A stretch of 64,000 nt of DNA from an uncultured Pseudomonadota bacterium. Its GTDB lineage: Bacteria > Pseudomonadota > Alphaproteobacteria > RF32 > CAG-239. Below are positions 30,667-57,189 of this stretch, piece by piece; the stretch's first letter is position 1; every line of letters begins with the position of its first letter. The stretch spans positions 6,214 to 70,213 of the forward strand of contig CAMRWU010000002.1 of assembly GCA_947054505.1 (NCBI GenBank), in the 5' to 3' direction. The notes under the pieces are model-generated. The model made no database searches and was not told where the DNA came from. It saw only the letters and a list, made by a program, of their open reading frames with translations. The position numbers and the translations under genes were made by a program.

Positions 30667-32322
30667 TTATAAAAATAACAAAAAATGCTTGCCAAATAAA
30701 AAAAAGTGTCTTAGATATAGGACATCCACATTGATTGGGGTGTCGCCAAGTGGTAAGGCATCGGCTTTTGGTGCCGACATTCGTTGGTTCGAATCCAGCC
30801 ACCCCAGCCAGACTTGACAAGAGCCTATTTTAGCCAGTGCTAAGATAGGCTTTCTTATTGAAATATCTACATTTTTACCGTCTAATAAAATTTCCGAACA
30901 AAGTAATTTTAAAACCTGTTGTTTTTTGTCGTTGTTCAGAAAATTCCATATCTGGTCTGACATCAAAAGCAAGCCAGCCAAGTATTTGAGCGTTATCAGA
31001 CCTTGTTTAGTCAGATGACTATAGTCGGTTAATCGCTCTTCCAGTTTTTTCTTATCCTGTCTGTATTCGGTTAGTTTTTTGGTATATAAATCCTGTGTAA
31101 TACTGCCTTCCGTAAACAGGTCTATCAACCTGCTTTCCTTTTCTGCAAAACCTGCAATCTGCCTGTCCAATGCCTTCTTGGCTTCTATTTCCATTTTATG
31201 GTCTTTGTAAATTTCTTCATCCAAACAGGCAACCAATTTCTCGACAACGCTTTTAGGCATGTTTTTAAACGTTTTTAATGCCTCTCTCACTTTTTCAACC
31301 CCATTTTCCTCTCTCGTCCGATAGCCTCCGCATTGCGGACAAAAAAGGTATTTATAAACGACTTTTTCTCCGCCCTTCTTTTTCGCCGGATGTACATTGA
31401 TATCTGTCGAAACAACACCACCGCATTTTTTACAGCGAACCAATCCTTTGAATACATATTCATGCTTCTGCACCTTATGATTTGCCTTACCTTCCAAAAT
31501 TTCCTGACACCGTTCAAACGTATAGCTATCCGTCAGCCGCGGATAACAATGCGGATAATATTGCCCGCCACTGAACATCTCCCCGACATAAAAACGGTTG
31601 CTTAATATTCCGCGGATAGTCTGCTTATGAAGTTTCTTGCTGTTTTTCATCTTAAGCCCCAAGTCCGCGGCTTTCCGCGTTATCTGCTCAAGATTATAGG
31701 TACCAATCGAAAATTCCTTAAACAACCGCGTAATGATGAAATGGTTGTCCTCATCCAACACAATATCGCTGTTACCATTGGCATCCCTTACATTTTTATA
31801 GCCGACTGGTGCGTGATGTGGCCATTTTCCCTCTTTACGCATTTTTTCAAAGCTGCGTATTACATTATCACTCATCGTGTCTGTTTGCGACTGCGCAACT
31901 GTAATCCGAAAGTTCCACATCATCTTCTCATGAGCTTTGGCATTTTTCGCCATAATTGCTTGTTCCGTCTGAAAATGAATTGCAATTTTTTCTTTTTCAA
32001 TCAGCTTATTCAAAACATCATATTCCTTGAAGCTTCTTTGCAACCTATCAACTTTGTCACAAACCAAAGCAACCGGATTTTTATATTTTTTTATAAAATT
32101 TATCATATTATAAAATTCTTTTCGTTCACCTCTGGTCGAACTTTCAACAACGGTAAACTGCTTAATAATTGTCAACCCTTGCCGAATACAATAATTCTTT
32201 ACCCGGTCTTCCTGAGCATCAAGCGAATAACCTTCTTTCTGCTCTCTGCTTGATACTCGTATCCATAAAACGGCATGCTTTATATTTTTATCATTCACAA
32301 CTTTTGCAGCTTTTCTTCCCAT
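30667..32322 (-). CDS. large serine recombinase (integrase); the C-terminal ~50 codons read through tRNA-Gln on the opposite strand
   Basis: N-terminal resolvase domain (VLWIRVSSREQ), recombinase domain, zinc ribbon (CKKCGG...CPQCGG) and coiled-coil tail; the true C-terminus is uncertain because the ORF reaches a stop only after crossing the tRNA. Confidence 0.75.
   Translation of the reverse strand: MGRKAAKVVNDKNIKHAVLWIRVSSREQKEGYSLDAQEDRVKNYCIRQGLTIIKQFTVVESSTRGERKEFYNMINFIKKYKNPVALVCDKVDRLQRSFKEYDVLNKLIEKEKIAIHFQTEQAIMAKNAKAHEKMMWNFRITVAQSQTDTMSDNVIRSFEKMRKEGKWPHHAPVGYKNVRDANGNSDIVLDEDNHFIITRLFKEFSIGTYNLEQITRKAADLGLKMKNSKKLHKQTIRGILSNRFYVGEMFSGGQYYPHCYPRLTDSYTFERCQEILEGKANHKVQKHEYVFKGLVRCKKCGGVVSTDINVHPAKKKGGEKVVYKYLFCPQCGGYRTREENGVEKVREALKTFKNMPKSVVEKLVACLDEEIYKDHKMEIEAKKALDRQIAGFAEKESRLIDLFTEGSITQDLYTKKLTEYRQDKKKLEERLTDYSHLTKQGLITLKYLAGLLLMSDQIWNFLNNDKKQQVLKLLCSEILLDGKNVDISIRKPILALAKIGSCQVWLGWLDSNQRMSAPKADALPLGDTPINVDVLYLRHFFLFGKHFLLFL
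30689..30717 (+). promoter_or_regulatory. candidate sigma70 promoter for tRNA-Gln (TTGCCA-17 nt-TAGATA)
   Basis: -35/-10 hexamers with 17-nt spacing read by eye ~20 nt upstream of the tRNA 5' end. Confidence 0.4.
30736..30810 (+). tRNA. tRNA-Gln (anticodon UUG)
   Basis: cloverleaf folded by hand: acceptor UGGGGUG/CACCCCA (U1-A72), D-arm GCC..GGC, anticodon stem UCGGC/GCCGA with loop UUUUGGU, T-arm GUUGG-UUCGAAU-CCAGC, encoded CCA. Confidence 0.85.
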
Positions 32323-32428
32323 ATTCTTACCTTTCCGTATTAAAATTATACTTTATTTTAAGATTCATCATTTTGACAGGTCAAGGAAGGCCGGATGTAT
32401 TATCCAGCCTCCACTGGCCTAATTTGTT

Positions 32429-33280
32429 TTATGCTGCGACCTTCACCTCCGTTTCCTTGTTGGCAACTCTACCGAGTTCCCTGTCCAACTTCTTTTGAAC
32501 AGCATCAAAAATCATGTCATTGACTAAAGAGGTATATTTATGTTGATACAGTCTTCCGCCACTTCTCATGTACCCAGAATAAAAAGTATTCCGCAGCATA
32601 TGAAGCAATGTTCTTCGGCTGATTAAACTACCAGTAGTTGTATACAGAGGTAATGATTGAGCAATTTCAAGCAAATTTTTGATGCTGATTTCTGACCGTA
32701 AATAGGTATCAAATAGAAACTTAACTTTGTCAGCCTGTTCATCCGGCAGAATCCAAGGGCACCAACTTGGACGGCAATTTTTATATCCTATCGGTGCCTT
32801 GCCTGGGTAAAATCCATTCTCACGCATCGTTTGCAAAGCCTTTTTATCCTTTTCAGACTTGTCTGCAGAAAAATGCTCTGCTTTAGCAATCAACTCTCTG
32901 TATTCATATATATCATCCGCTGTAGAAAATAGTGAGATTACAATATGTTCTTTGACAAAGTGAATTTCGACTTTACCTGTTTGCACCAACTCGTCCAATA
33001 AACTCATGTGATTAAAGTTCCGGGCTAAACGGCTAGATTCCGACAAAACCAAAGCTACAGGCGTTACTTTTACTTGCTGGATTAAATCTAATATCTCATT
33101 AAATTTCGGACGTCTTTTAGTAAAGGCGCTTTCAATTGCTTGCTTATTTTGTATGATTTCAAAATTCTTACTTCGGCAATACTCTTTACAGATGGCTTCC
33201 TGTTCAGAGAGAGAGTTACCGATATTCTGCTTTACAGAAGAAATTCGGCACATAATTATTGCATTTTTAGCAAAATCCAT
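32429..33280 (-). CDS. serine recombinase, short (resolvase plus recombinase domains, no zinc-ribbon/coiled-coil)
   Basis: AIIMCRISSVKQ catalytic-Ser motif; 283 aa, lacking the C-terminal domains of the neighbouring 551-aa paralog. Confidence 0.65.
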   Translation of the reverse strand: MDFAKNAIIMCRISSVKQNIGNSLSEQEAICKEYCRSKNFEIIQNKQAIESAFTKRRPKFNEILDLIQQVKVTPVALVLSESSRLARNFNHMSLLDELVQTGKVEIHFVKEHIVISLFSTADDIYEYRELIAKAEHFSADKSEKDKKALQTMRENGFYPGKAPIGYKNCRPSWCPWILPDEQADKVKFLFDTYLRSEISIKNLLEIAQSLPLYTTTGSLISRRTLLHMLRNTFYSGYMRSGGRLYQHKYTSLVNDMIFDAVQKKLDRELGRVANKETEVKVAA

Positions 33281-34406
33281 CTCTATTTCCTTTCGTTAAA
33301 GTTATGATTTGATTTTCATTAATAGCTGCGGTTATGCCGTCCAAATCCGGCTGCAGCCAGTTGTTTTGCGGTTCGAGCCGGTTAATCAGCCGAAACAGTT
33401 CATAAATTGCCGGTGAAAAAGAGTTCCCCGCATGTAGCCGCAATTCTCGTTTGCCCATCGTCTTCAGTATCGTTACTAAACCGACAAGCTGCAGGGCTTT
33501 TAGAAACTTATATTTGGCATCCAGCAGACGCTTGAATAAATCTGCCGAATTTTCTTCGCTTAACTGCTGATATCTGACAGCCGCCAAAATTTCATTCCAA
33601 TAAACCAGCGTAATAGCTCGGCAAATTTGACTGCTGAAAAGATTTTGGAATGTCAGCTCCGGAACTGGAAGCCCCGCTTTGCTGATGGCTTGGCGGATAT
33701 TCTCAGAATTGCCTAACTGAATTTCAACCCGTAAATATTGGCTTGAGCCTAGGGCTGCCATATCAATTGTCTGGGCATTTTCGGAACTGACAGCCCGACT
33801 TTTACAATACCGGGCTTTTTGAATATCTTTGAGTTTATCGTAAATAACGACATTCCGGTGTCGGGCTAAAAAATGCAGCGAATGCCCTTCGTTTCGGTAT
33901 GACACCTTGGTACAATCGAGCCGACGGCTGATGTCAGCTTTGTTCAAATATTGTAAAATCACACAGGGTGCGACTTTAACCAAGACATTCTTACCAAAGT
34001 CAATCCTTACAACTTGTGCCGACCGCAACACTTGAGACGAAGCATCAACACCCATCTCGTGAAGCCGTAATGCCAAAATGCTGATGACATCTTCAAAGTC
34101 GGCATCGCAAACTTCTTCCAGATTGTTGGGCGGAAAATGCAGAAGTTTCGGTGTGGAAAATTCAATTTTCAACTTAACGCTGAAACCTCCGTGCCGCAGC
34201 ACGCTGCTTAATGACAGCCTAGGGTAGTAATGCTGTTGCTGCTCTTCACGCGTTGCAAAGTTATAGCAGGTCACAGCCTCCGCCCCTTGCATATCCCAGA
34301 GGATTTGCGGATTAGGCTTAAAACGCCCAAGCTCTGTTATTGTGATGTCCGTGTAATCGACCAGCAAAACGCAGGTATCACAGACATTTTTATTATTTGT
34401 GCTCAT
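33267..34406 (-). CDS. hypothetical protein, possibly a Rep_trans-like rolling-circle initiator/relaxase
   Basis: 379 aa with VVRIDFGKN resembling the RxDxAxD-type motif of Rep_trans initiators; this is inference only. Confidence 0.35.
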   Translation of the reverse strand: MSTNNKNVCDTCVLLVDYTDITITELGRFKPNPQILWDMQGAEAVTCYNFATREEQQQHYYPRLSLSSVLRHGGFSVKLKIEFSTPKLLHFPPNNLEEVCDADFEDVISILALRLHEMGVDASSQVLRSAQVVRIDFGKNVLVKVAPCVILQYLNKADISRRLDCTKVSYRNEGHSLHFLARHRNVVIYDKLKDIQKARYCKSRAVSSENAQTIDMAALGSSQYLRVEIQLGNSENIRQAISKAGLPVPELTFQNLFSSQICRAITLVYWNEILAAVRYQQLSEENSADLFKRLLDAKYKFLKALQLVGLVTILKTMGKRELRLHAGNSFSPAIYELFRLINRLEPQNNWLQPDLDGITAAINENQIITLTKGNRDGFC

Positions 34407-34584
34407 TGACAGACCTTCCTTTCATTTGAGCATTGATTAAAACTTCCAACTCAGGATTTTCCTGAGCGGCCTCATGTAATATCTTCAACAGAGCAACAAG
34501 ACTTTTGCCTGCATCGACAGCTTCATCCGCCGTCAAGTCAGGACAACACTTCAAAATCTCATTATTTAGCGCTTGGTAATTCAA
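34393..34584 (-). CDS. small hypothetical protein (63 aa), upstream of and overlapping the Rep-like gene
   Basis: ORF in operon arrangement (14-nt overlap). Confidence 0.35.
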   Translation of the reverse strand: MNYQALNNEILKCCPDLTADEAVDAGKSLVALLKILHEAAQENPELEVLINAQMKGRSVNEHK

Positions 34585-34759
34585 GACAGAGCTCTCCGTT
34601 GATGTTATTTACGGGGGCTCTTTACAAGATGATATTCTGAAAATTAACTATATTTAGAAAAAAAAGATAAAAAAAATCCTATAAATTCACATAATTACAA
34701 ATAGTTATGTATTTTATTTTTATAGGATAATATATATATTTTAATATGATAACAGACAT

Positions 34760-34793
34760 CAAAAAAACACTCTTTCATAAAAGAAAGAGTGTT
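34760..34793 (-). terminator. rho-independent terminator after the XRE gene
   Basis: ACACTCTTTC-ATAAA-AGAAAGAGTGT hairpin with a minus-strand T-run. Confidence 0.55.
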
Positions 34794-34812
34794 CTCCAAC
34801 TAAAGAAATACC

Positions 34813-35262
34813 CTAAGGCCTTTTCTTTAGGCGCTCATCCGATGGATAAAAGGCATCTCGGTTCGTACATTCTGGACTTGTTTTATACAAATTCCATGTA
34901 GCATATGTATTTGCCAATACTTGTAGCATAACTTTTAATAGTGCACTATCGCTTTTTTCTAACAAGCTCATAATTTTCCCTGTAGTAGTTGTTCTCTTTG
35001 GATATAATGATATTATGAACTCATCAAACTGATAATCTAAAGCTTCAGACAACGACATTAATGTAAGTAGACTTGCATCAACCTCGCCTTTTTCAATCTT
35101 GTAAATTGTATTAACATTCACATGAGATTTTTGAGCTAAGAGCTGCAACGAATATTTCTTTCTCTGTCGTAGTTCCGCTAATTTTGCCCCAATTTTCTTT
35201 ACTCGACCGATATATCTCTTTTTACGATATTCTCTTTGTTCTGATTTATATTTATTTGTCAT
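34813..35262 (-). CDS. XRE-family HTH transcriptional regulator
   Basis: helix-turn-helix LQLLAQKSHVNVNTIYKIEKGE. Confidence 0.65.
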   Translation of the reverse strand: MTNKYKSEQREYRKKRYIGRVKKIGAKLAELRQRKKYSLQLLAQKSHVNVNTIYKIEKGEVDASLLTLMSLSEALDYQFDEFIISLYPKRTTTTGKIMSLLEKSDSALLKVMLQVLANTYATWNLYKTSPECTNRDAFYPSDERLKKRP

Positions 35263-35474
35263 TTTATTGCCTTGCTTTAATGTTTATAAAATAGCAAAAA
35301 CCGTTTTCCTTTCAAAGTCAAATTATTAGAAATATTTCCCACAAAAAACAGCCCCGAATAAGAAATATCCGGGGCTGCTTAGTTTTAGTGATTTAACGCT
35401 TAAAATTTATACTTAGCGTTAATCAATCCTGTGTGGTCTTGGTAAACCACCTCAGATTTGAGGTGTTTATAACA

Positions 35475-36398
35475 TTAATATACTAATTCACTATTGCCGC
35501 ATAGGGCATCAGACATATAAACCGCTCCCAAGACACTTCGGTTGGTATAATCTTGGTTATCTAAGGGGTTATTTTCATTTTTGCTATAATATTCAGTCGG
35601 CACCAACTTACCACCTCGTTGCTCAAAATTGATTCTAAAAATATCAGATACTTTAATTATTAGGGCAGAACCTTTAACCGAAAATGAATAATTTTCTTGT
35701 TTACTAAATCTGTTATCTGCCATTGATAATAATGACATACCGATAATGACATCCTCAATTTTGCAGTCCTTTTTAACCAAACTTTCAACTGGCATTCCAA
35801 TCATAGATGGCGCAGACTTTTTAAATCTGCCATACAATTTCGACTTATTAAAAGTTTTCATAAATTCAGCTTTTTGTTTCGTGTAATTTTGTTCGATTTT
35901 CAGTTTATGCCGAAGATTTCCGGCCATCCAGGCCTTAATCTCTCCATGAGCCCAGTAGCTCTTTAACTTTGTCGTTTTTTCCCTGTCTTGAATAAAATCA
36001 TTTTTTAAACAAAAACCGGCGACTTCATTCAATATTCCATAACTATCATAAGTTTCGCCATCCCTTTCGCTCAAGTCTTTCATTTTCTTATCGCGATAAA
36101 AAACAGAGGGCATTTCAAGATAGCTATTGATTACAAGATTAGCTTGCGGGATATTGACTGAGGACAAACCATTTCTTGTTTTAAGCTTATCATTCACATT
36201 CAGAATTTCTGTTTCCAGTTTTATAAGTTTATCCCAATCATAATTTTCCACATACTTATTCTCAAAGCTTTTGCATCTTCCCACGCCTAATAATTTTTTT
36301 GTGGGAATGCTAAATTGACTAAAATAGGCTCCCTGTTTCTCATCATTAATTATGGCGCAACCGCTAAGCATAAGCATTATCATTAAAAACTTTTTCAT
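35475..36398 (-). CDS. hypothetical lipoprotein
   Basis: lipobox MLMLSGCAI; no recognised domain. Confidence 0.5.
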   Translation of the reverse strand: MKKFLMIMLMLSGCAIINDEKQGAYFSQFSIPTKKLLGVGRCKSFENKYVENYDWDKLIKLETEILNVNDKLKTRNGLSSVNIPQANLVINSYLEMPSVFYRDKKMKDLSERDGETYDSYGILNEVAGFCLKNDFIQDREKTTKLKSYWAHGEIKAWMAGNLRHKLKIEQNYTKQKAEFMKTFNKSKLYGRFKKSAPSMIGMPVESLVKKDCKIEDVIIGMSLLSMADNRFSKQENYSFSVKGSALIIKVSDIFRINFEQRGGKLVPTEYYSKNENNPLDNQDYTNRSVLGAVYMSDALCGNSELVY

Positions 36399-36413
36399 AG
36401 TCCTCTCCTCTAA

Positions 36414-36914
36414 TTATTCATAATCTTCAACGCCGTTCTCTGTCATTCGATAGTATAAAACACCATCTCTGGCCTTGCCATCGACATCCCAGAACAACGC
36501 TTCAATACTGGCACAATTAGTTTCTTCCAAATCCAAATCTGCCCCAACTTCTACCCTTTGTTTATCACCGTTGTTAGCATCTTGAATAAACTCTCTTAAA
36601 ACAAACTGGACACTCCGCCCCCCTTGAGGAAAGCAAAACCTTCTATAAACAGTTGTCTTATATACATCTCTGATTGAATAAACATCAGTTATTATTTCTG
36701 CATAAATTGGCCTGTCATTCCGCACGCCATCCATCTTTGTACATTGGGTTTTAATGCTTGAAACAACTTCTTTTCCATCACATGCCGAAATATAGTTAGC
36801 CTCAGGAATTTCAAAACCATACTGCTCATGGTAAGCACCATACACAGCAAAAATTATGACCATTATTCCTACAACATAAAGAAATTTATGCCAAAGATAT
36901 TTTAGTTTTTCCAT
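36414..36914 (-). CDS. hypothetical membrane-anchored protein
   Basis: 166 aa with a single N-terminal TM helix. Confidence 0.45.
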   Translation of the reverse strand: MEKLKYLWHKFLYVVGIMVIIFAVYGAYHEQYGFEIPEANYISACDGKEVVSSIKTQCTKMDGVRNDRPIYAEIITDVYSIRDVYKTTVYRRFCFPQGGRSVQFVLREFIQDANNGDKQRVEVGADLDLEETNCASIEALFWDVDGKARDGVLYYRMTENGVEDYE

Positions 36915-37329
36915 TTAGTTTCTCCCTTTTTCTAATTCTAACAAAAATAAAAGTCGCCAAAGTTCCATGGCGACCGGGAGTTAGTAACTGCACTATAACA
37001 GCATGATGCTTTTGGCATAATGCTTGGACATAACATCATCTCCCGGTCATAAAAACCGGAAGAAGTGTTTTTTGATTTCGGTCTGCCTTCTAAAATCTCA
37101 GACCGTATAGTGAAGAGGTTACTACGCCCCAGTCCGACAATCGAACCAGTTTTATATTAGGTTAAACCGGGAAAAAAAGTCAAAGAATTTTTTTTAATAT
37201 TCAAGTCCGTCAACTCATTATATAATTTTAGTTTTATAATGAGTCCTTATTTTTTAAGCGTTGTAAGACTTTAAGCCTGGACTTTTATTTTATACTCATT
37301 ATAATTTATTACATAAATTCAATAACATA

Positions 37330-37947
37330 ATGAGTTTGAGGCAAAAAATGGCACTTAATAAACAGGCAAAAATCCTCACGCCAAAGCAGCAGGAACTGAC
37401 ATTGAGCTATTTGGAACGGACAAGATATCCGCTCCGCAACAAAATTATTTTTATGCTTAGTTACAAGGCCGGATTGCGGGCAAAGGAAATAGCGAATCTA
37501 AACTGGCTGATGGTTTGCGACTCGGAAGGAAACTTGAGCCGAGAAATTAACCTTATTAATAAGGCATCCAAAGGTAAACAATCTGGTCGGATTATTCCGT
37601 TGCATAAAGATTTGGCGGTCTTATTAGCGGAATTGCTAAGCAGACAACAGAAGAATAAGCATTTTAATTTGACGAATCGGATTATTACGACAGAACGCGA
37701 CAATAAGACCAGCCCGCAGGCAATCGTCAATTTCTTTTATAATTTATATAAGGAAATCGGGTTTGAAGGCTGCTCCTCGCATAGCGGCCGCAGAACCTTC
37801 ATCACCACTGCTGCTAAAAATATCAGCCTTGCCGGCGGAACCTTAAACGATATCCGCATGTTGGCCGGACATTCCACCCTTGCTACCACCCAACGCTATA
37901 TTGAATACAATACCGATGCACAGAAGAAAATTGTGGAGATGGTTTAA
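37330..37947 (+). CDS. small tyrosine recombinase (catalytic domain only, FimB/FimE-sized)
   Basis: box I R (AGLRAKE), HSGRRTF, and GHSTLATTQRYIE with catalytic Tyr; only 205 aa and no N-terminal arm/core-binding domain. Confidence 0.7.
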   Translation: MSLRQKMALNKQAKILTPKQQELTLSYLERTRYPLRNKIIFMLSYKAGLRAKEIANLNWLMVCDSEGNLSREINLINKASKGKQSGRIIPLHKDLAVLLAELLSRQQKNKHFNLTNRIITTERDNKTSPQAIVNFFYNLYKEIGFEGCSSHSGRRTFITTAAKNISLAGGTLNDIRMLAGHSTLATTQRYIEYNTDAQKKIVEMV

Positions 37948-39071
37948 GAAGAACGCATACAAGATGGTGATGAAACTACAACACATCCATCAAATTTTAA
38001 ACCATATATTCCATTTTTGAATTTTTGATGTTCTTCCGTTGATGCTTGATTATCCCATAAAAAAGCAACAAGTTTACATTTTTCATATTCTTCAGATGCT
38101 GTATATAGAGTTTTGTCCGCAGCTAATTCTTCAGTCAAATCAGCAAATGTTTTTGCTTTACCTTTTCTATATTTCACCTCAATTATCAAATGAAGTTCAG
38201 GAATATAAAGATCAGCTCTAGGATTCTTATGCCCCTGTTGTGGAAGATTGATTTCTTTTTGTATTCTCGGAAAAATTGGTGCCAGCATCACATACAATAA
38301 ATTTTGAACATGATATTCATTTTCTATAAGCCATTTTACAGGTGGACTGGTTTTTGTTTTGGGTTTTTCTTCCCAAGTCCAGCAATTCAATCCCATCGAA
38401 ATATTTTCCATAAAGGAAATTAAATTTTCCAAACTCCAATTATTCGCTGGAACCGTTGCTTGTTCTTCTGAAATATGATTAAAAATATAAATTAAAGCAG
38501 CTATTAACCACACAGAAGAAATATCCTCTACCTTAGTATATATCTTCCAGAACTCTGCAATGCAAAAATCTTTCAAATCCGTCTGTAATTCATATAGCCC
38601 TTTGTAATGCAGTAATAAAAGCACGACAGGAGAAGAAACTTTATTTGAAATATCCTCATTCAGCACAAATTTTGCCAAAGTTTCTTCATGTAAATTGAAT
38701 TTTTGTTTTTTAACTGCAAATCTTAAAAAATTTTCAATCCAGCTATTGAAGGCTCCTATTAAAATATCATTTTTTGATGCTGCTACAGCTAACTTAATTC
38801 CCAATAAACCAATAACATCATAATGCCATGGCATAGGCACTCCATCAATTTCTGCAGCACATTTAAATAATCGGCTTAATTTTTCTTGATTACAAATGCC
38901 ATTAAATCCATTGATTGCACACTCATAAAAGTCTGCATCATTAAAAACATTTTGTGTACTCAATCCTAAATATTTTACAAAGGCATCTACATTAGTATTT
39001 GTTCCACAACCTTGGATAAGCTTCTCATTAAGATACTCTTTAATATGATAGTTATTATTTACAGAAACCAT
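37944..39071 (-). CDS. pAgo-associated protein with C-terminal PD-(D/E)xK-like nuclease motif
   Basis: 375 aa; C-terminal ENEYH...RADLYIPELHLIIEVKYRKGK gives an E...D-x11-E-V-K arrangement typical of restriction-endonuclease-fold nucleases; 13-nt overlap with the upstream pAgo gene. Confidence 0.5.
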   Translation of the reverse strand: MVSVNNNYHIKEYLNEKLIQGCGTNTNVDAFVKYLGLSTQNVFNDADFYECAINGFNGICNQEKLSRLFKCAAEIDGVPMPWHYDVIGLLGIKLAVAASKNDILIGAFNSWIENFLRFAVKKQKFNLHEETLAKFVLNEDISNKVSSPVVLLLLHYKGLYELQTDLKDFCIAEFWKIYTKVEDISSVWLIAALIYIFNHISEEQATVPANNWSLENLISFMENISMGLNCWTWEEKPKTKTSPPVKWLIENEYHVQNLLYVMLAPIFPRIQKEINLPQQGHKNPRADLYIPELHLIIEVKYRKGKAKTFADLTEELAADKTLYTASEEYEKCKLVAFLWDNQASTEEHQKFKNGIYGLKFDGCVVVSSPSCMRSS

Positions 39072-41257
39072 TTAGCCCTTCCTGTCTTTTGAAATAAGCA
39101 GCTATTATCCCATTTGGGTAATTGATTTAACCAGCCTAAACTATAAGCAATTAAATTTGAATACATTATTGTAACTGGTAATGGTGCTACAAAATAACTT
39201 CTCCAAGAATGAGCCGAAAAATTAAATATTTGATTGCTCAGATATTTAATATCCTTAAATGTAGAATCTTTATGAACACTTGCATAAACACATTGAGGGT
39301 GGCCATCATTAGTTTTTTTAAGTTCTGCACCCCCTGTTAAACATAATAACATGGCATAATCTGAAATTTTAAAATACTGTCCCCTAGTTGGTGCCAAACA
39401 TCCCTTGTTTTCATTATCCCTATTTGTATCAAAAGTTTCCCATAAATGTTCTTTCGATAATTTTACAAATGCATATTCAATATTATACTCTTTGAATTTC
39501 TTTATAACATCTTTTACTGCTTCAATTTCATATCCATTAAACTCTTTTACCATAGAGTGAAAGACAATTCTGATAGTATCACCTTCTACCCAACTCATCG
39601 ATGCTTTAACTTTATCAATTGTAGTTTCCAAAACATTTGCTAGTTCGTCTTTATATCCATCAGGAAAAACCGCATTAGATTTTCCAGTAAGAATATATTG
39701 ACCGCTACCGCTAAATACTGTTGTTATTCCCATAACTCTATTTTTTCTGGTATTCTGCTCGCCTTCAGAAATAAATGCACTACCAATTCCTATTACCAAC
39801 TCATGTACAACGGTTGGTATTGATTGCAATAACCAAGGGACACCGCCCATTTTTGCATATGTAGCTAAAGCCATATTATTTAATGAATATCCTAAGGTTA
39901 TATCATTTTGTTGAAGTGTCTCTATTGTAAAATCCTGAACCGGTATATCACGAGCCATCAACATTGATTTTGCGGTAAAATAAGGATTATCCTTGACATT
40001 CAAATCTTTAAATGATTTTTCAATTTGAACCAATGCTAGATCCCATAATTTCTCGCCAGCCTTATATTCCAAAGCATTTTCAATGGCTTTTTTATATCCT
40101 GCAGGTGTATTTGATGCAAATGTAAATATTTTAACAGTACTTCGGCCAATTCCAAATTTTCCTTCTAAACCATTACTAAAATATTTATGTTCATTAATTC
40201 CACTCAGAAATTTACGAACAAATTGTTCAACTTCTCCTTGCCTTGATTCTGAACAAATTACACATATCGCAGGGTTATTTCTGTCAAAGTGAGCTTTTGT
40301 ATAAGGGCCAAATTTTTTCAAACCATATTCTATTCCTGTTGCAATAGAACTATTTGCAAATGTAAATTGCGGTTTTTCAAAATTATTTATTTTAGAAGTG
40401 ATATTAAAAAGTTCCTCAATTTGGATTCCATTATTTTCAAAAAATTGAGATTTTTTAAGAAAATTTGCAAAAGCTTTAATCTTGCTAAATTTGTTTTTAC
40501 CGTTACTAAAAGCGGAAACAGCATTATACAACTTCTCGTTTATTTTTTGAGCAGATGTCCTATACAAAAGACTCAAATAATCTTTAATATTTTTATAGCT
40601 TGGTATCAAAAAAAGGCTATCTGAAGCATAATTCTGGCTATCGCCATTTGTTTCACAAATAATATTATTTCCTTCATAGCTTTTAATTTTTCCAACTTTT
40701 TTTCTTTCACCATTAGGTAAATTTATATAAGCCTTTCTTCCGATTAAATTAAAACCTTTAGAATAAAAATAATTACATGGATAGCTTGTCTGATATCTAA
40801 CGGAGGTATCAACTAAAATGCAGGTCTCATTCTCAATTTCCCGAACATCAATCAAGTACGAAGGAAGTGCCGCAAAAGGAAAATCAGTATTTAAAACTTT
40901 TTTTATAATGTCTTCCTCAGACTTAGAGCTAATAAGGCAAATCGGATTAAAACCCCAAGCCTTATTTTTTCCAGCGTTATCAATAGCTTTTTTTATTGCA
41001 TATTTTATTAAAACTTTTCTAAAATCACTATATTCTTCATCCGTAATATCAATCTCTTTTACCCACTCTTGTAATTTGCTATCATATTGCTGTTCAAATG
41101 AAAAACCTAATATTTCCATACCTTTATGTCGATAAAATATGACAGATTTATATTTTACTTTCAATTCATTAAATAAATCATCAGAATATTTTAAAACACA
41201 AATAGAAAATTTTGTTTGTTTTAATTTAACTGGGCATCCATTCAAATAAATTGCCAT
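39059..41257 (-). CDS. prokaryotic Argonaute (pAgo), catalytically inactive PIWI (long-B-like)
   Basis: 732 aa; PIWI signature YAKMGGVPW then VIGIGSAF in place of GxDV(S/T)H (D to G), RIVFHSM in place of the RDG motif, and IMYSNLIAY in place of the YYA(H/D) motif. Confidence 0.7.
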   Translation of the reverse strand: MAIYLNGCPVKLKQTKFSICVLKYSDDLFNELKVKYKSVIFYRHKGMEILGFSFEQQYDSKLQEWVKEIDITDEEYSDFRKVLIKYAIKKAIDNAGKNKAWGFNPICLISSKSEEDIIKKVLNTDFPFAALPSYLIDVREIENETCILVDTSVRYQTSYPCNYFYSKGFNLIGRKAYINLPNGERKKVGKIKSYEGNNIICETNGDSQNYASDSLFLIPSYKNIKDYLSLLYRTSAQKINEKLYNAVSAFSNGKNKFSKIKAFANFLKKSQFFENNGIQIEELFNITSKINNFEKPQFTFANSSIATGIEYGLKKFGPYTKAHFDRNNPAICVICSESRQGEVEQFVRKFLSGINEHKYFSNGLEGKFGIGRSTVKIFTFASNTPAGYKKAIENALEYKAGEKLWDLALVQIEKSFKDLNVKDNPYFTAKSMLMARDIPVQDFTIETLQQNDITLGYSLNNMALATYAKMGGVPWLLQSIPTVVHELVIGIGSAFISEGEQNTRKNRVMGITTVFSGSGQYILTGKSNAVFPDGYKDELANVLETTIDKVKASMSWVEGDTIRIVFHSMVKEFNGYEIEAVKDVIKKFKEYNIEYAFVKLSKEHLWETFDTNRDNENKGCLAPTRGQYFKISDYAMLLCLTGGAELKKTNDGHPQCVYASVHKDSTFKDIKYLSNQIFNFSAHSWRSYFVAPLPVTIMYSNLIAYSLGWLNQLPKWDNSCLFQKTGRAKWFL

Positions 41258-41377
41258 ATTTCAGCTTTCAGACAGTATTAAATAAATTTTGCAAAAAGAC
41301 TACAAATCAAAAAAAGGTAGCCTATATTGAATACTTAGGAATTTTTTTATTCTGTATCAAGAGCTAAAAGTATTTTT

Positions 41378-41650
41378 TTATAAATTTTTACTACTTAGCA
41401 TATTTTTATCCGCTCTTTCAAAAATGGCACCTAAGATTTCAAGGTTTTTAATCGTAGCTTTTAATATCTTGTTTTGCATTGCACGGAGCGTATAAAAATT
41501 TTTGCTTTTGTTTGATTCCATTGTTTTGACAATCATTTCAACTTCCAAGCCTGTATAGCAACGCATTATTCGCGTAAACGGATTACTGAAATGCTTTAGT
41601 GCATAATTTAATGCCGTATTGTCCAGACAAATATAAAAGTCCTTAATCAT
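41378..41650 (-). CDS. small hypothetical protein (90 aa)
   Basis: ORF in AT-rich island DNA; no recognised domain. Confidence 0.3.
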   Translation of the reverse strand: MIKDFYICLDNTALNYALKHFSNPFTRIMRCYTGLEVEMIVKTMESNKSKNFYTLRAMQNKILKATIKNLEILGAIFERADKNMLSSKNL

Positions 41651-41698
41651 TTTTATTATTTCCTTCTGCTGTTGGCTATATAATAAAAATATTGAGCA

Positions 41699-41866
41699 CT
41701 AGCCTTTTTCTATTGTCATCATCTGCCGCAAATCGTCATCCATGCCGTTAATAATAAGGTACATTTCCGCTAATTCCTGTTCATATTTTTTCCTAAGGTC
41801 ATAAACCTTGGTCAGCCAGAGTTCAAAAGTCGTCAGAAATGGCGATTTTTTCTTTTTATCAAGCAT
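41699..41866 (-). CDS. small hypothetical protein (55 aa; not in the ORF track)
   Basis: ATG-initiated ORF MLDKKKKSPFLTTFELWLTKVYDLRKKYEQELAEMYLIINGMDDDLRQMMTIEKG, read by hand. Confidence 0.25.
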   Translation of the reverse strand: MLDKKKKSPFLTTFELWLTKVYDLRKKYEQELAEMYLIINGMDDDLRQMMTIEKG

Positions 41867-42191: not shown

Positions 42192-42704
42192 CTATCTCTC
42201 TTTAATATAATCTAGAAATTTTTGAGAATAGCCCTCTTGGGATTTCTTATAAAGAATACCCTCTGCCTCTCTTTTCTGTTCCATTTTTTCTTTTAAATAT
42301 GCCTCTCTCTTTTCTACTTCCGGTTTTACCAACTCAAAATCATCTTTCACAATCTTTTCATAAGTTTTTGACGCCTCTTCAGTAAGTTTGTATCTCTCTA
42401 TTATATTGCTCTTTAAAACTTTATTTAACACACTCTGGAACGGCCATGAATCACTTTCTTTATTAGAAAGTACATAAGCTTGTATTTTGGAAAGTGAATA
42501 TAAGGATCCTTTTTTTAATGAGTATCCATCGACAACAAAACCACCATCTGCGTCAAAACTACTTGTTCCTTCCCAATGCATATCCGCAGTTTTGGGATGA
42601 GCCGACAATAAATAACGTCCATCAATACCTTTGTGAATAACGAGTGCCTGTGTAACTTCAGATTTATTTTCATTATCCACTATAATAATTTTACTTTTTT
42701 CCAT
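42192..42704 (-). CDS. hypothetical protein
   Basis: ~170 aa ORF; start probably at MEKSKIII. Confidence 0.4.
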   Translation of the reverse strand: MEKSKIIIVDNENKSEVTQALVIHKGIDGRYLLSAHPKTADMHWEGTSSFDADGGFVVDGYSLKKGSLYSLSKIQAYVLSNKESDSWPFQSVLNKVLKSNIIERYKLTEEASKTYEKIVKDDFELVKPEVEKREAYLKEKMEQKREAEGILYKKSQEGYSQKFLDYIKER

Positions 42705-42826
42705 TGTTTTATCCCCTTTCAAAATCTTCTTATATTGCAAATATATTTTTTTATATCAATTATTATATCCTAAAATCATAAATATTTCAACATAAATCTC
42801 GGAAACTGCACGTCGTCTCCAGCCAT

Positions 42827-45829: not shown

Positions 45830-47227
45830 ATGAAAAACAATCCTTTTGCCAAGGTATTCCGCACCGCATTTGAAACAGACATCCTCTCGGGAGCCGTCTG
45901 TATTCCCCAATCATCAGACCGCCCTGATATTGCGCCGAGAGTATCTTGCTTTCTAAACGAATTAAACAAATTTCTCCGCACCAATGGAGAAAAACCATTG
46001 CTTTATCAAAAATACGCCATTGATGAACACAAACTTCTGGAATACGCATTGTTTTTGCGCGGTTACATGAGAGATTCTCAAACAATCCTATCGCAACTTC
46101 AGCCTCATCACGCCACAGATCAAGGATTAATAGACTTGTTCCGCGCCTCAAGTGAATATGCCGTTGCCTGCAATCATCAATTCGGCAACAAAAAAATATT
46201 CAATAACAACGTTGATTATCGCCTTTGGCAAATCCGTTCCACCCCCCAAAGCCATGTAGAAACGGCACAAAACATCGAAACATCTCGACACAACATGTTC
46301 TTGTTCATGCCCTTCCGCATCAAAGATAACGAAGCCGAATTGCAAAAATGGATTTTCATGAACATGCAAAACACGATGGAAAACCAACAGGTTTTCGGAA
46401 AAAGTGTTGATGTTTACGTAAATTTTTTCCCAATTCAAAAATCAAGATCATCCAACATCCACTCTTTGCTCCAAACAATCAAAGAACCTGAAACATATTA
46501 CGAACAGACAGACATGCTCTTTGTGCAAAAATATTGGAAAGACTTTATTGGCCAAAATATCATCTTTGATGAAAAAGGACAGGCAATCTCCGGAGAAACA
46601 CTCAAAGAAAACGAATTATTGCAAAATTTCTCCAACATCTCTATTTTTGCCTATTGCTCCGGAGCGGCCAATGCTCACAGATGTCTTAATGCCCTCTACG
46701 ACGTAACCAGTCAAATGTACGATGAAAATACGGCGCAAAAAGCCATGCAAAAAATTGAAATAATGACTTATGGCTTTTTACCGTTGCAACAACATTCCCG
46801 TTACAGCGGCATTCATTTTTACACCAACGCCATCGACGATGTCAACCGTCACGAACCTTTTGTAAACCTCAACAACCACCTCTTGTACGAACAAACAAAA
46901 TGTAAAACAGACACTCCAGCCCGCTATTCGGTCATGCCTGACGGACGAAATTTTATCGTTTCCCTACGAATGCCCGAAAAAATGACCATCTGGCGAAATA
47001 ACCAACCCGAACAATTTCAAGACAAAGAATTTGGACACAGTATTCTCTTTCTGACCAAAGAAAATCTTTTAGACAGTGACAATTATGCTTACAATCTGTT
47101 CCGTTCAGCGTTTGAACAAACCAGTCTGGGAAAGCGCGGAGCAGATATTCTTAACTTTACACCGCGATCAAATACAAACAATATCCTATTAAACAGTCAT
47201 CTTAAAGGTCAAATGCAAAGATTATAA
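45830..47227 (+). CDS. hypothetical protein (465 aa), paralog-family member with SG[SA]ANAH motif
   Basis: no recognised domain; shares the FAYCSGAANAH motif with 58070..59647. Confidence 0.45.
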   Translation: MKNNPFAKVFRTAFETDILSGAVCIPQSSDRPDIAPRVSCFLNELNKFLRTNGEKPLLYQKYAIDEHKLLEYALFLRGYMRDSQTILSQLQPHHATDQGLIDLFRASSEYAVACNHQFGNKKIFNNNVDYRLWQIRSTPQSHVETAQNIETSRHNMFLFMPFRIKDNEAELQKWIFMNMQNTMENQQVFGKSVDVYVNFFPIQKSRSSNIHSLLQTIKEPETYYEQTDMLFVQKYWKDFIGQNIIFDEKGQAISGETLKENELLQNFSNISIFAYCSGAANAHRCLNALYDVTSQMYDENTAQKAMQKIEIMTYGFLPLQQHSRYSGIHFYTNAIDDVNRHEPFVNLNNHLLYEQTKCKTDTPARYSVMPDGRNFIVSLRMPEKMTIWRNNQPEQFQDKEFGHSILFLTKENLLDSDNYAYNLFRSAFEQTSLGKRGADILNFTPRSNTNNILLNSHLKGQMQRL

Positions 47228-47721: not shown

Positions 47722-47766
47722 AAACAAAACACCGGCAATCTTCCAAAGATTACCGGTGTTTGCTTT
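47722..47766. terminator. bidirectional terminator
   Basis: AACACCGGCAATCTT...AAGATTACCGGTGTT hairpin flanked by A/T runs, between convergent genes. Confidence 0.55.
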
Positions 47767-48554
47767 TATAACAAAGGTTTATTATTCAACACATCGTCCA
47801 AACGTTGTTTCGCCAAATCAATATACTGCTGATTGATATCCACTCCGACAAACTGCCGCCCATTCCTGAGAGCAGCAACCCCCGTCGTCCCGCTCCCCAT
47901 AAACGGATCCAAAATCAAATCCCCTTCATGTGTAGAAGCAGTAATAATCCGCTCCAATAAAGCCAACGGCTTTTGCGTTGGATGCCGCCCAAACAATTTT
48001 TCATTTTGCGGTGGCGTAAAAATGGACCATACACTACGCATCTGCTTATTGGGACTTTTAATCATATCTTTTGAAAAATCACCGTTTTTCATCGCATCAT
48101 AATTAAAATAATGCTTAGCCTTTTTACTTTTCTTAGCCCAAATCAGACTTTCGTGACTGGCGGTAAAATATTTGCACGATAAATTCGGTGCTGCATTAGG
48201 CTTAAACCAAATCACATCATTCAAAATATGATAATTGAGCATCATCATGGCAAAACCGCAGGGATACAAACTGTGATATGTTCCGGAAACCCAAATGGTT
48301 CCGTTGGGTTTCAACAGACGCTTACACAATTCCAGCCATTTTTTATGAAACTCAAAATCCTCGGCAATACCGCCCTGACTTTTATCCCATTTACCTTTAT
48401 TGATGGAAACCAGTTTTCCGTTTTGACAACTGGTCCCCCCATTTGACAGAAAATAAGGCGGATCGGCAAAAATCATATCAAACGTTTCGTCCGGAAACTT
48501 TGCCAATACTTCAAAACAATCCCCTTGATACAATTGATACGATTTTTCAGACAT
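47766..48554 (-). CDS. beta-class DNA methyltransferase (N6-adenine or N4-cytosine; CcrM/M.HinfI-like)
   Basis: motif IV FADPPYF precedes motif I DPFMGSGTTGVAA; start reset to MSEKSYQLYQGDC with AGGTAGG RBS. Confidence 0.75.
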   Translation of the reverse strand: MSEKSYQLYQGDCFEVLAKFPDETFDMIFADPPYFLSNGGTSCQNGKLVSINKGKWDKSQGGIAEDFEFHKKWLELCKRLLKPNGTIWVSGTYHSLYPCGFAMMMLNYHILNDVIWFKPNAAPNLSCKYFTASHESLIWAKKSKKAKHYFNYDAMKNGDFSKDMIKSPNKQMRSVWSIFTPPQNEKLFGRHPTQKPLALLERIITASTHEGDLILDPFMGSGTTGVAALRNGRQFVGVDINQQYIDLAKQRLDDVLNNKPLL

Positions 48555-48633
48555 ACGGAACCTACCTGTTAAGCTTTTCTCTTTTCTATCCGATAACAAA
48601 ACAACTTGCAAGTCCCGCAACCATTTACTCTAC

Positions 48634-57115: not shown

Positions 57116-57189
57116 TGCTTCATCGTCTAATGGTAGGACAGCGGACTCTGACTCCGTTAATCTTGGTTCGAATCCAGGTGAAGCAGCCA
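57116..57189 (+). tRNA. tRNA-Gln (anticodon CUG)
   Basis: hand-folded: acceptor UGCUUCA/UGAAGCA (U1-A72), anticodon stem GCGGA/UCCGU with loop CUCUGAC, T-arm CUUGG-UUCGAAU-CCAGG, encoded CCA. Confidence 0.8.

Follow-up and report, generated by a model that had tools for sequence, protein, structure and literature searches.

The question raised by this locus is whether two overlapping genes, read in an earlier note as a catalytically dead Argonaute (pAgo) and a nuclease partner, represent an undescribed pAgo-effector pairing or a defense system that already has a name. The window, that is, the whole stretch of DNA analysed here, comprises 64,000 nucleotides from an uncultured gut alphaproteobacterium, and our reading, to which we give a probability of roughly 0.85, is that the two genes make up an intact BPAN system of a long-B pAgo and the nuclease bAgaN, on a tRNA-Gln-associated island. 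It is a fairly divergent representative of BPAN and not a new system type. BPAN was named and functionally characterised by Song et al., 2023 (PMC10620215), and the structure and activation mechanism of the Escherichia coli system, EcBPAN, have since been solved (Liu et al., 2026; PMC13535254). EcBPAN is formed by EcAgo and EcbAgaN of E. coli CAP29, whose complex is PDB 23wq, and in it the RNA-guided recognition of target DNA leads to collateral DNase activity and abortive infection (PMC10620215, PMC13535254).

Both proteins match BPAN components over their full length

The pAgo and bAgaN genes form a two-gene operon on the minus strand, with bAgaN directly downstream of pAgo; the coordinates of both reading frames and the 13-nt overlap given in the earlier note were confirmed:

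39059-41257, minus strand: long-B pAgo of BPAN type, predicted to be slicing-incompetent, 732 aa, ATG start, assigned by homology to EcAgo
37944-39071, minus strand: bAgaN, nuclease associated with long-B pAgos, 375 aa, ATG start, assigned by homology to EcbAgaN
39059-39071, minus strand: 13-nt gene overlap, ATGGTTTCTGTAA, read as (K)WFL-stop at the end of the pAgo and as MVSV at the start of bAgaN

The 732-aa protein matches the PADLOC class II model pAgo_II (PDLC02379) at 1.9e-222 and 739 bits over model positions 2-724 of 724, the remaining PADLOC models scoring 266 bits or less. Its best match in the PDB is the EcAgo chain of 23wq (8e-193), to which it aligns from end to end (aa 1-732 against 1-731) with only small gaps and ~43.5% identity. 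RsAgo comes second (7e-65), and no long-A pAgo is found among the PDB matches at E≤0.01. The NCBIfam equivalog model for RsAgo (NF052569) is hit at 5.8e-90, but its 302.7 bits fall far under the equivalog cut-off of 700, so the protein is not an RsAgo orthologue. Judged by its sequence, it belongs to the long-B clade that is tied to nuclease partners (og_15). Domain limits carried over by alignment from the solved EcAgo structure are approximately N 1-96, L1 96-160, a reduced PAZ 160-221, L2 221-309, MID 309-484 and PIWI 484-732.

The slicer tetrad, aligned to EcAgo, reads G492/D533/M569/N701, an incomplete DEDX, and the PIWI domain is predicted to be incapable of slicing. In EcAgo the tetrad, defined on the solved structure, is G492/E532/Q568/D700 (PMC13535254), so that the two acidic residues which EcAgo retains are altered here, E to D and D to N. 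Glycine occupies the first tetrad position in 120 of 120 homologues in the family alignment (MAFFT), and the pattern x-M-N is confined there to the sub-branch P0001-P0007. The motifs from which the earlier note had argued are all present (KMGGVPW from aa 469, GIGSAF from 490, HSM from 567 and MYSN from 698, together with EVK at 298-300 of the partner). Its claim that the catalytic positions are substituted holds, but the third of them is M569 and not the serine of HSM; the fourth tetrad element, the glutamate finger, which it had left unread, is D533.

The guide-binding residues are intact. In the MID pocket of EcAgo, a Y-K-Q-K set and an aspartate bind the 5'-phosphorylated guide and the C-terminal carboxylate binds Mg2+ (PMC13535254). 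The corresponding Y426, K430, Q441, D442, K469 and C-terminal L732 are all identical to EcAgo, and the 5'-phosphate pocket residues are near-invariant over the family alignment; the t1' pocket (E310, Y359, Y457, N460, Y688) is likewise conserved.

The 375-aa protein matches PADLOC Aga_Helical-REase (PDLC02404) at 3.5e-94 over model positions 2-368 of 368, and the EcbAgaN chain of 23wq at 1.3e-82 over aa 5-372, with ~40% identity. By homology, its N-terminal part is a helical regulatory domain that bears the Ago-docking loop (~aa 67-84), in which R67, A72, D76 and P79 are retained, and its C-terminal part is a PD-(D/E)xK DNase domain. The nuclease motif is D287-x10-E298-V299-K300, and its D-EVK residues are kept in 7/7 partner sequences and in EcbAgaN. 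The aspartate and EVK of the earlier note are thus in place, with a spacing of ten residues rather than the eleven it had given. The Pfam searches that it had proposed returned both expected folds, Piwi in the pAgo (3e-11) and REase_DpnII-MboI (PF18742) in its partner (5.3e-39, aa 223-366), and the fold of both proteins is settled by their full-length sequence matches to solved chains. The broader idea of an operon that joins a slicing-incompetent long pAgo of long-B logic to a PD-(D/E)xK effector is supported by these family matches. The suggestion that the pairing might be undescribed is not, given the full-length matches to the PADLOC class II models and to PDB 23wq and the published work on BPAN (PMC10620215, PMC13535254).

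The operon is conserved and under purifying selection

The WFL-stop/MVS junction and the gene order recur in all seven distinct loci compared, even where protein identity falls to 45%, the 13-nt junction sequence itself showing one- or two-base changes in three of them. In each of the seven, the gene after pAgo encodes a DpnII-MboI-fold protein of 374-385 aa and overlaps pAgo by 13 nt, as here; the overlap probably serves translational coupling. The identities of the two proteins drop in parallel across loci (98/94, 86/79, 63/56, 49/48, 46/41 and 45/45), and both genes are under purifying selection, with dN/dS of 0.09-0.25. The 90%-identity cluster of the pAgo has 74 members, representing at least ~200 contigs when summed over the 15 members listed.

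The AT-richness of the locus that the earlier note had remarked upon is confirmed to exceed chance: the operon has 30.5% GC, against 42.6±1.7% outside the island (232 same-size windows; minimum 36.7). A consensus scan for regulatory signals of the operon turned up no convincing promoter or terminator; it returned 22 promoter-like sites, where shuffled sequence gave 27±4, and with sites no more numerous than in the shuffles it is uninformative.

The operon lies on a tRNA-Gln-associated island

The operon is carried by an island of ~11 kb, which also contains two serine recombinases and one tyrosine recombinase, as the earlier note had held in calling it recombinase-bearing:

30811-41820, no strand assigned: island with the operon, bounded by the tRNA-Gln(UUG) 3' end and the homology break with related MAG loci, limits inferred
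30736-30807, plus strand: tRNA-Gln, anticodon UUG (ARAGORN; Rfam RF00005, 61.6 bits)
30667-32322: serine recombinase (domain search)
32429-33280: serine recombinase, 283 aa, truncated-looking (domain search)
37330-37947: tyrosine recombinase, 205 aa, catalytic domain only, truncated-looking (domain search)

In blastn comparisons with two related MAG loci, homology stops at 41818-41820, and the match to one of them (L004) begins at 30733. The 8-mer CAGCCAGA occurs at 30805-30812, the tRNA 3' end, and again at 41813-41820, the homology break; it is the sole match in a search for long direct repeats flanking the island, and although the pair fits a serine-recombinase site, it is weak evidence on its own. 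The tRNA-Gln gene is the likely integration site. The GC content of the island is 35.4%, compared with 42.3% for the remaining window, and its horizontal acquisition, also proposed in the earlier note, is supported.

Besides the recombinases, the island holds a Rep-like gene, an HTH gene, three ORFs of unknown function, bAgaN, pAgo, and ORFs of 90 and 55 aa. The 90- and 55-aa ORFs (upstream) and those of 182, 166 and 307 aa (the last two downstream) have no match in Pfam, PADLOC, PHROGs or NCBIfam. Considered as candidates for a third system gene, these five ORFs are not core components, because they are missing from more distant BPAN loci. A weak ArgoN match in a 465-aa ORF outside the island (45830-47227) is treated as chance, since it lies below the cut-off and no other search supports it. 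The island encodes no methyltransferase, the nearest being CcrM-like and ~6.5 kb away, outside the island, at 47766-48620. The surroundings of the operon and of the small tyrosine recombinase were also examined for att-type repeats or an invertible promoter, and yielded only repeats that are AT-rich and of low identity. There is a local inverted repeat at 37212-37240 and 37308-37336, whose 67-nt spacer is too short for it to be credible as an invertible switch.

Proposed mechanism and alternative readings

If the guide and target types, the stoichiometry and the phenotype are taken over from the E. coli homologue, the following sequence of events may be proposed. The pAgo, unable to slice, would load transcript-derived small RNAs of ~18-22 nt with a 5'-phosphate into its conserved MID pocket and would pair with complementary plasmid or phage DNA. 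The target-bound pAgo would dimerise and capture the docking loop of an autoinhibited bAgaN dimer; the resulting complex would associate further into a higher-order oligomer (in E. coli an 8:8 assembly), in which the inhibition exerted by the bAgaN N-terminal domain is lifted. The PD-(D/E)xK domains (D287/E298/K300) might then degrade DNA non-specifically, the host chromosome included, so that the infected cell would die or arrest and the population would be protected through abortive infection.

Where this scheme could depart from EcBPAN is in its assembly. The active EcBPAN assembly is an 8:8 oligomer (PMC13535254), and among the EcBPAN contact residues validated by mutagenesis, the Ago-Ago contacts D400/R552/H726 are replaced here by G401/S553/R727, the EcAgo contacts to bAgaN R321, S524 and N554 by A322, G525 and S555, and the EcbAgaN contacts H134 and S94 by K124 and Y84. 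Because several validated contacts differ, details or stoichiometry of the assembly may differ too. Only in the sub-branch P0001-P0007 does R552 become S or L, R321 become A, P or L, and the S524 position (mostly N in the family) become G or R, and the same sub-branch carries an arginine at the H726 position. It is possible to read these replacements, together with the tetrad pattern x-M-N restricted to the same sequences, as the mark of a BPAN homologue with another oligomeric assembly than 8:8 or with another guide or target preference. The gut-alphaproteobacterial sub-branch (G-x-M-N, remodelled contacts) might then assemble or activate through, for example, another stoichiometry or docking geometry, which would be a second structural solution for effector activation by long-B pAgos. 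We consider this unlikely: the 5'-phosphate and t1' pockets are kept, as are pAgo Y319, F324 and D560 and bAgaN R67, A72, D76 and P79; the changes resemble a relocated salt bridge (E402...R727) more than the loss of an interface; and EcAgo itself is off the family consensus at some contact positions, with H726 where the family has Q and S524 where it has N.

Two further readings would deny the locus a joint function altogether. That the genes act independently, the pAgo as an RsAgo-like RNA-guided plasmid silencer and the 375-aa protein as a conventional type II restriction endonuclease resembling DpnII/MboI, draws on the Pfam label of the C-terminal domain and on the rank of RsAgo as next-best solved homologue, yet it is very improbable when the island is without a cognate methyltransferase, when the 375-aa protein matches bAgaN along its full length, including an N-terminal helical domain absent from restriction enzymes, and when overlap, gene order and parallel divergence tie the two genes together. 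Singly, moreover, neither EcAgo nor EcbAgaN protects E. coli against phage (PMC13535254). Still harder to credit is a decaying, non-functional remnant carried as passive cargo of a degraded mobile element: the truncated-looking serine and tyrosine recombinases and the lack of a clear promoter in the consensus scan might hint at it, but neither ORF is shortened relative to any homologue, the functional residues are all intact, dN/dS is low in both genes, and the pAgo is present in many assemblies. An intact BPAN system remains by far the best explanation.

The value of the locus as a discovery is small, as the system type is already covered by PADLOC models, its function was published in 2023 and the activated complex was solved in 2026. 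What it adds is the record of an intact BPAN system, under purifying selection, on a tRNA-Gln island in an uncultured mouse-gut alphaproteobacterial lineage, along with the recurrence of the overlapping junction and gene order in all seven BPAN loci sampled. The sub-branch with diverged interface residues could aid tests of how general the 8:8 assembly is.

Comparison with known systems

RsAgo of Rhodobacter sphaeroides (PDB 5awh, 6d8p and others) has been studied as a stand-alone long-B pAgo. It shares the long-B clade and an inactive tetrad with the protein described here, but its alignment covers only aa 146-732, leaving the N-terminal ~145 aa unaligned. In the BPAS and BPAM systems, whose long-B pAgo has a Sir2 or transmembrane protein as its effector, and in the short-pAgo systems SPARTA, SPARSA and SPARDA, an inactive Argonaute likewise detects the invader and a toxic effector encoded with it brings about abortive infection. 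The effector here, however, belongs to the bAgaN family of PD-(D/E)xK DNases and is not a Sir2, TIR, transmembrane or DREN protein, and the pAgo is full length and has no APAZ partner. The locus also differs from type II restriction-modification systems of the DpnII/MboI kind in that no cognate DNA methyltransferase adjoins the nuclease.

The closest counterpart is EcBPAN. Both are two-gene operons with pAgo upstream, and both proteins are collinear with their E. coli homologues over their full length; they share a reduced PAZ, a glycine at the first tetrad position, identical 5'-phosphate and t1' pockets, the N-terminal helical domain of bAgaN with the R, A, D and P of its docking loop, and a D-x10-EVK nuclease domain in which D287...E298 has the same spacing as D298...E309 of EcbAgaN. 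They are set apart by identities of just ~43.5% (pAgo) and ~40% (bAgaN), by the tetrad (G/E/Q/D in EcAgo, G/D/M/N here) and the contact residues described above, and by the host: EcBPAN comes from E. coli, whereas the system described here comes from the MAG of a low-GC gut alphaproteobacterium, where a tRNA-Gln island containing serine recombinases carries the operon.

The Argonaute and its partner nuclease

The two open reading frames (ORFs) lie on the minus strand, exactly where the earlier note had placed them, and overlap by 13 nt:

37944-39071, minus strand, partner nuclease (bAgaN), 375 aa
39059-41257, minus strand, prokaryotic Argonaute (pAgo), 732 aa

Each motif previously read in the two proteins was located: KMGGVPW, GIGSAF, HSM and MYSN at positions 469, 490, 567 and 698 of the 732-aa protein, and EVK at residues 298-300 of the 375-aa protein. 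Two details required amendment. The D...EVK arrangement of the nuclease is present, but its spacing is D287-x10-EVK rather than x11; the four PIWI catalytic positions of the slicer tetrad are indeed degenerate, but alignment to the E. coli protein EcAgo, whose tetrad was set on a solved structure, makes the third position M569 and not the S of HSM. The AT-richness of the locus stood up to measurement, as the GC content of the operon (30.5%) is below the minimum (36.7%) of 232 equal-sized windows outside the island described below (mean 42.6%, sd 1.7).

That the larger protein is an Argonaute was borne out by HMM searches, in which the Pfam Piwi domain scored 3e-11 and the PADLOC model pAgo_II (PDLC02379) covered the protein end to end (1.9e-222). 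The NCBIfam RsAgo equivalog model also matched (5.8e-90), at 302.7 bits and thus far under its cut-off of 700. The best match among PDB sequences is EcAgo (PDB 23wq; 8e-193, residues 1-732 against 1-731, global identity ~43.5%), with RsAgo (7e-65) next and AfPiwi after it; none of the matches at E≤0.01 is a long-A pAgo. The degenerate EcAgo tetrad, G492/E532/Q568/D700 (Liu et al., 2026; PMC13535254), corresponds here to G492/D533/M569/N701, in which the canonical catalytic carboxylate set is absent. The 5'-phosphate pocket defined in the same work together with the EcAgo domains (Y426, K430, Q441, D442, K469 and the C-terminal L731) is conserved at identical positions, with L732 as the terminal residue, as is N424, and so is the whole t1' pocket (EcAgo E309, Y358, Y457, N460 and Y687; here E310, Y359, Y457, N460 and Y688).

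The nuclease fold proposed for the partner was likewise recovered, as Pfam REase_DpnII-MboI, of the PD-(D/E)xK fold, at aa 223-366 (5.3e-39), and the PADLOC model Aga_Helical-REase (PDLC02404) matched over the full length (3.5e-94). EcbAgaN, found in the same PDB entry as EcAgo, aligns with aa 5-372 (1.3e-82; global identity ~40%). Its catalytic D298, E309, V310 and K311 are D287, E298, V299 and K300 here, and R77, A82, D86 and P89 of its docking loop are R67, A72, D76 and P79.

Conservation of the operon

The exact pAgo occurs on contigs with the same neighbourhood (loci L001-L003). At all six divergent loci compared (L004, L005, L006, L007, L009 and L011, with pAgo identities of 86, 98, 63, 49, 46 and 45%, respectively), a DpnII-MboI-fold gene of 374-385 aa lies directly downstream of the pAgo. 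Every compared locus retains the overlapping junction ATGGTTTCTGTAA (KWFL-stop / MVSV), with 1-2 base changes in three. The C-terminal Leu of the pAgo is under functional constraint, since the Mg2+ ion holding the 5'-phosphate of the guide is coordinated by its carboxylate (PMC13535254); the junction is probably kept in part by this constraint. Across loci the two proteins lose identity in parallel, which fits the co-evolution reported previously (PMC10620215). The dN/dS values are 0.09-0.22 (pAgo) and 0.11-0.25 (bAgaN). At 90% identity the clusters hold 74 pAgo and 32 bAgaN members on many contigs; among scored candidates, the homology search gave 525 proteins at E≤1e-20, mostly proteobacterial where the source is named.

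The neighbourhoods of the distant loci (L006-L011) are typical defence islands. They contain MmeI/Eco57I-type restriction-modification genes, an nSTAND3 NTPase, a UvrD-type helicase, T5orf172/DEAD helicase genes and recombinases, including large serine recombinases.

The surrounding island

The recombinase-bearing island described earlier is also seen here, with two serine recombinases and a tyrosine recombinase among the features of this region:

30667-32322, minus strand, large serine recombinase, 551 aa
30736-30807, plus strand, tRNA-Gln (UUG), a real tRNA gene
32429-33280, second serine recombinase
33267-34406, minus strand, weak Rep-like gene, 379 aa, sub-threshold Phage_CRI (rolling-circle Rep) match
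34813-35262, minus strand, HTH protein (HTH_3), 149 aa
35475-36398, minus strand, ORF without family, 307 aa
36414-36914, minus strand, ORF without family, 166 aa
37330-37947, plus strand, tyrosine recombinase, catalytic domain only, 205 aa, convergent with bAgaN
41378-41650, minus strand, small ORF, 90 aa
41699-41866, minus strand, small ORF, 55 aa

Nucleotide homology to L005 spans 33296-41820, and to L004 37232-41818 and 30733-32904. The 8-mer CAGCCAGA occurs at 30805-30812, at the tRNA-Gln 3' end, and at 41813-41820, exactly at the L004/L005 homology break; on extension the copies match at 11/13 positions. It is a candidate core site of integration, although so short a match could be due to chance. 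From the homology break, the tRNA and the repeat, we infer an island of ~11 kb (about 30811-41820, 35.4% GC) that carries the operon. It is mosaic: L005 shares the 33267-36914 block, whereas in L004 other sequence takes its place.

At its 3' end, the 551-aa recombinase ORF reads through the opposite-strand tRNA-Gln(UUG), as it does in L004, so that the recombinase C-terminus is encoded across the presumed attachment junction. The tyrosine recombinase lacks an N-terminal core-binding domain; its catalytic domain is apparently intact (LRAKE, HSGRR, GHS, QRY), its length is kept in L004 and L005 (199-201 aa), and its stop codon overlaps that of bAgaN by 4 nt. Just upstream, a promoter-like site at 37278-37305 lies between the arms of an imperfect inverted repeat of 29 nt (37212-37240 / 37308-37336). 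Gene calls in L001-L003 include the 90-aa ORF, and the DNA of the 90-aa/55-aa region is conserved in L004 and L005; both ORFs gave no family matches and are absent from distant loci, so that they may be accessory or regulatory genes of the island, or no genes at all. Terminator-like hairpins lie just right of the inferred boundary at ~41820 (41825-41850, plus strand; 42006-41981, minus strand); the latter follows a 182-aa ORF (42192-42740) and would keep read-through out of the island.

Host and neighbouring genes

Among genome records, 'uncultured Alphaproteobacteria bacterium MGBC103325' (98%) and a bin labelled 'uncultured proteobacterium' (86%) come closest. One neighbouring gene agrees with an alphaproteobacterial host:

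47766-48620, minus strand, CcrM-like N6/N4 DNA methyltransferase (NCBIfam CcrM 1.9e-71, below the equivalog cut-off)

It seemingly lacks the CcrM C-terminal domain, and probably serves as a housekeeping methylase of Alphaproteobacteria, not as a restriction-modification component. A 465-aa ORF (45830-47227, plus strand), which keeps its neighbours in L001 and L002, gave a Pfam ArgoN match (E=0.0016) that is probably chance, its 19.3 bits falling short of the cut-off of 30.9; searches of PDB, NCBIfam, PADLOC and PHROGs with it returned no matches. A second tRNA-Gln (CUG) lies at 57116-57189 (plus strand), ~26 kb from tRNA-Gln(UUG).

Comparison with EcBPAN

Long-B pAgo systems have been named BPAN, BPAS and BPAM (Song et al., 2023; PMC10620215). 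In the BPAN pair of E. coli, EcBPAN, EcAgo binds transcriptome-derived, 5'-phosphorylated small RNAs of ~18-22 nt, and bAgaN, a DNase dependent on Mn2+, has an essential D-EVK motif (D298, E309, K311); recognition of the target DNA through the guide RNA switches on collateral DNA degradation and abortive infection (PMC10620215). Anti-phage activity needs both proteins, and the activated complex was solved as 8:8; the Ago-Ago, Ago-bAgaN and bAgaN oligomer interfaces and bAgaN autoinhibition were defined, and a working model was proposed (PMC13535254).

We consider it about 85% probable that the locus is a BPAN member with the general mode of action of EcBPAN. The non-slicing pAgo would take up 5'-phosphorylated small RNAs and, once loaded, recognize complementary invader DNA; it would then dimerize and recruit an autoinhibited bAgaN dimer via the docking loop, and the higher-order assembly would switch on the PD-(D/E)xK domains, with indiscriminate DNA degradation and abortive infection as the outcome. 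Guide and target chemistry, stoichiometry and phenotype are here predicted by analogy with EcBPAN. What the sequences show for this locus itself is that it belongs to the family, that its functional residues are intact, that the operon is coupled and that it is under selection.

That the two genes are independent, a silencer pAgo and an ordinary restriction enzyme, is very improbable, given that a cognate methylase is absent, the partner aligns with bAgaN from end to end and the gene overlap is conserved; that the operon is a decaying remnant is more improbable still, with ORFs intact and dN/dS low. Somewhat less remote, though unlikely, is a variant assembly or specificity in the sub-branch nearest this locus (P0001-P0007). 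At the Ago-Ago interface, EcAgo D400/R552/H726 are replaced by G401 (with E402 adjacent)/S553/R727; on the Ago side of the bAgaN interface, R321, S524 and N554 have become A322, G525 and S555, whereas Y319, F324 and D560 are retained, and on the bAgaN side H134 and S94 are K124 and Y84. In an alignment of 120 full-length pAgo homologues, G occupies the first tetrad position in all 120, the MID pocket hardly varies, and GDSD (48) and GEQD (22) are the most frequent tetrads; only P0001-P0007 show the x-M-N pattern and the interface substitutions. In several of these, R552 is lost together with a gain of R at the H726 position, a pairing more suggestive of a salt bridge that has moved than of an interface that has been lost.

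The earlier note was right in its structural reading of a slicing-incompetent pAgo with a nuclease partner, as both proteins match solved EcBPAN chains. Its suggestion of an undescribed pairing does not hold, the family being already named, structurally solved and modelled in PADLOC. The locus is a new, moderately divergent copy of the known defence family BPAN, and what is left of mild interest is the remodelled interface that sets its sub-branch apart from EcBPAN.
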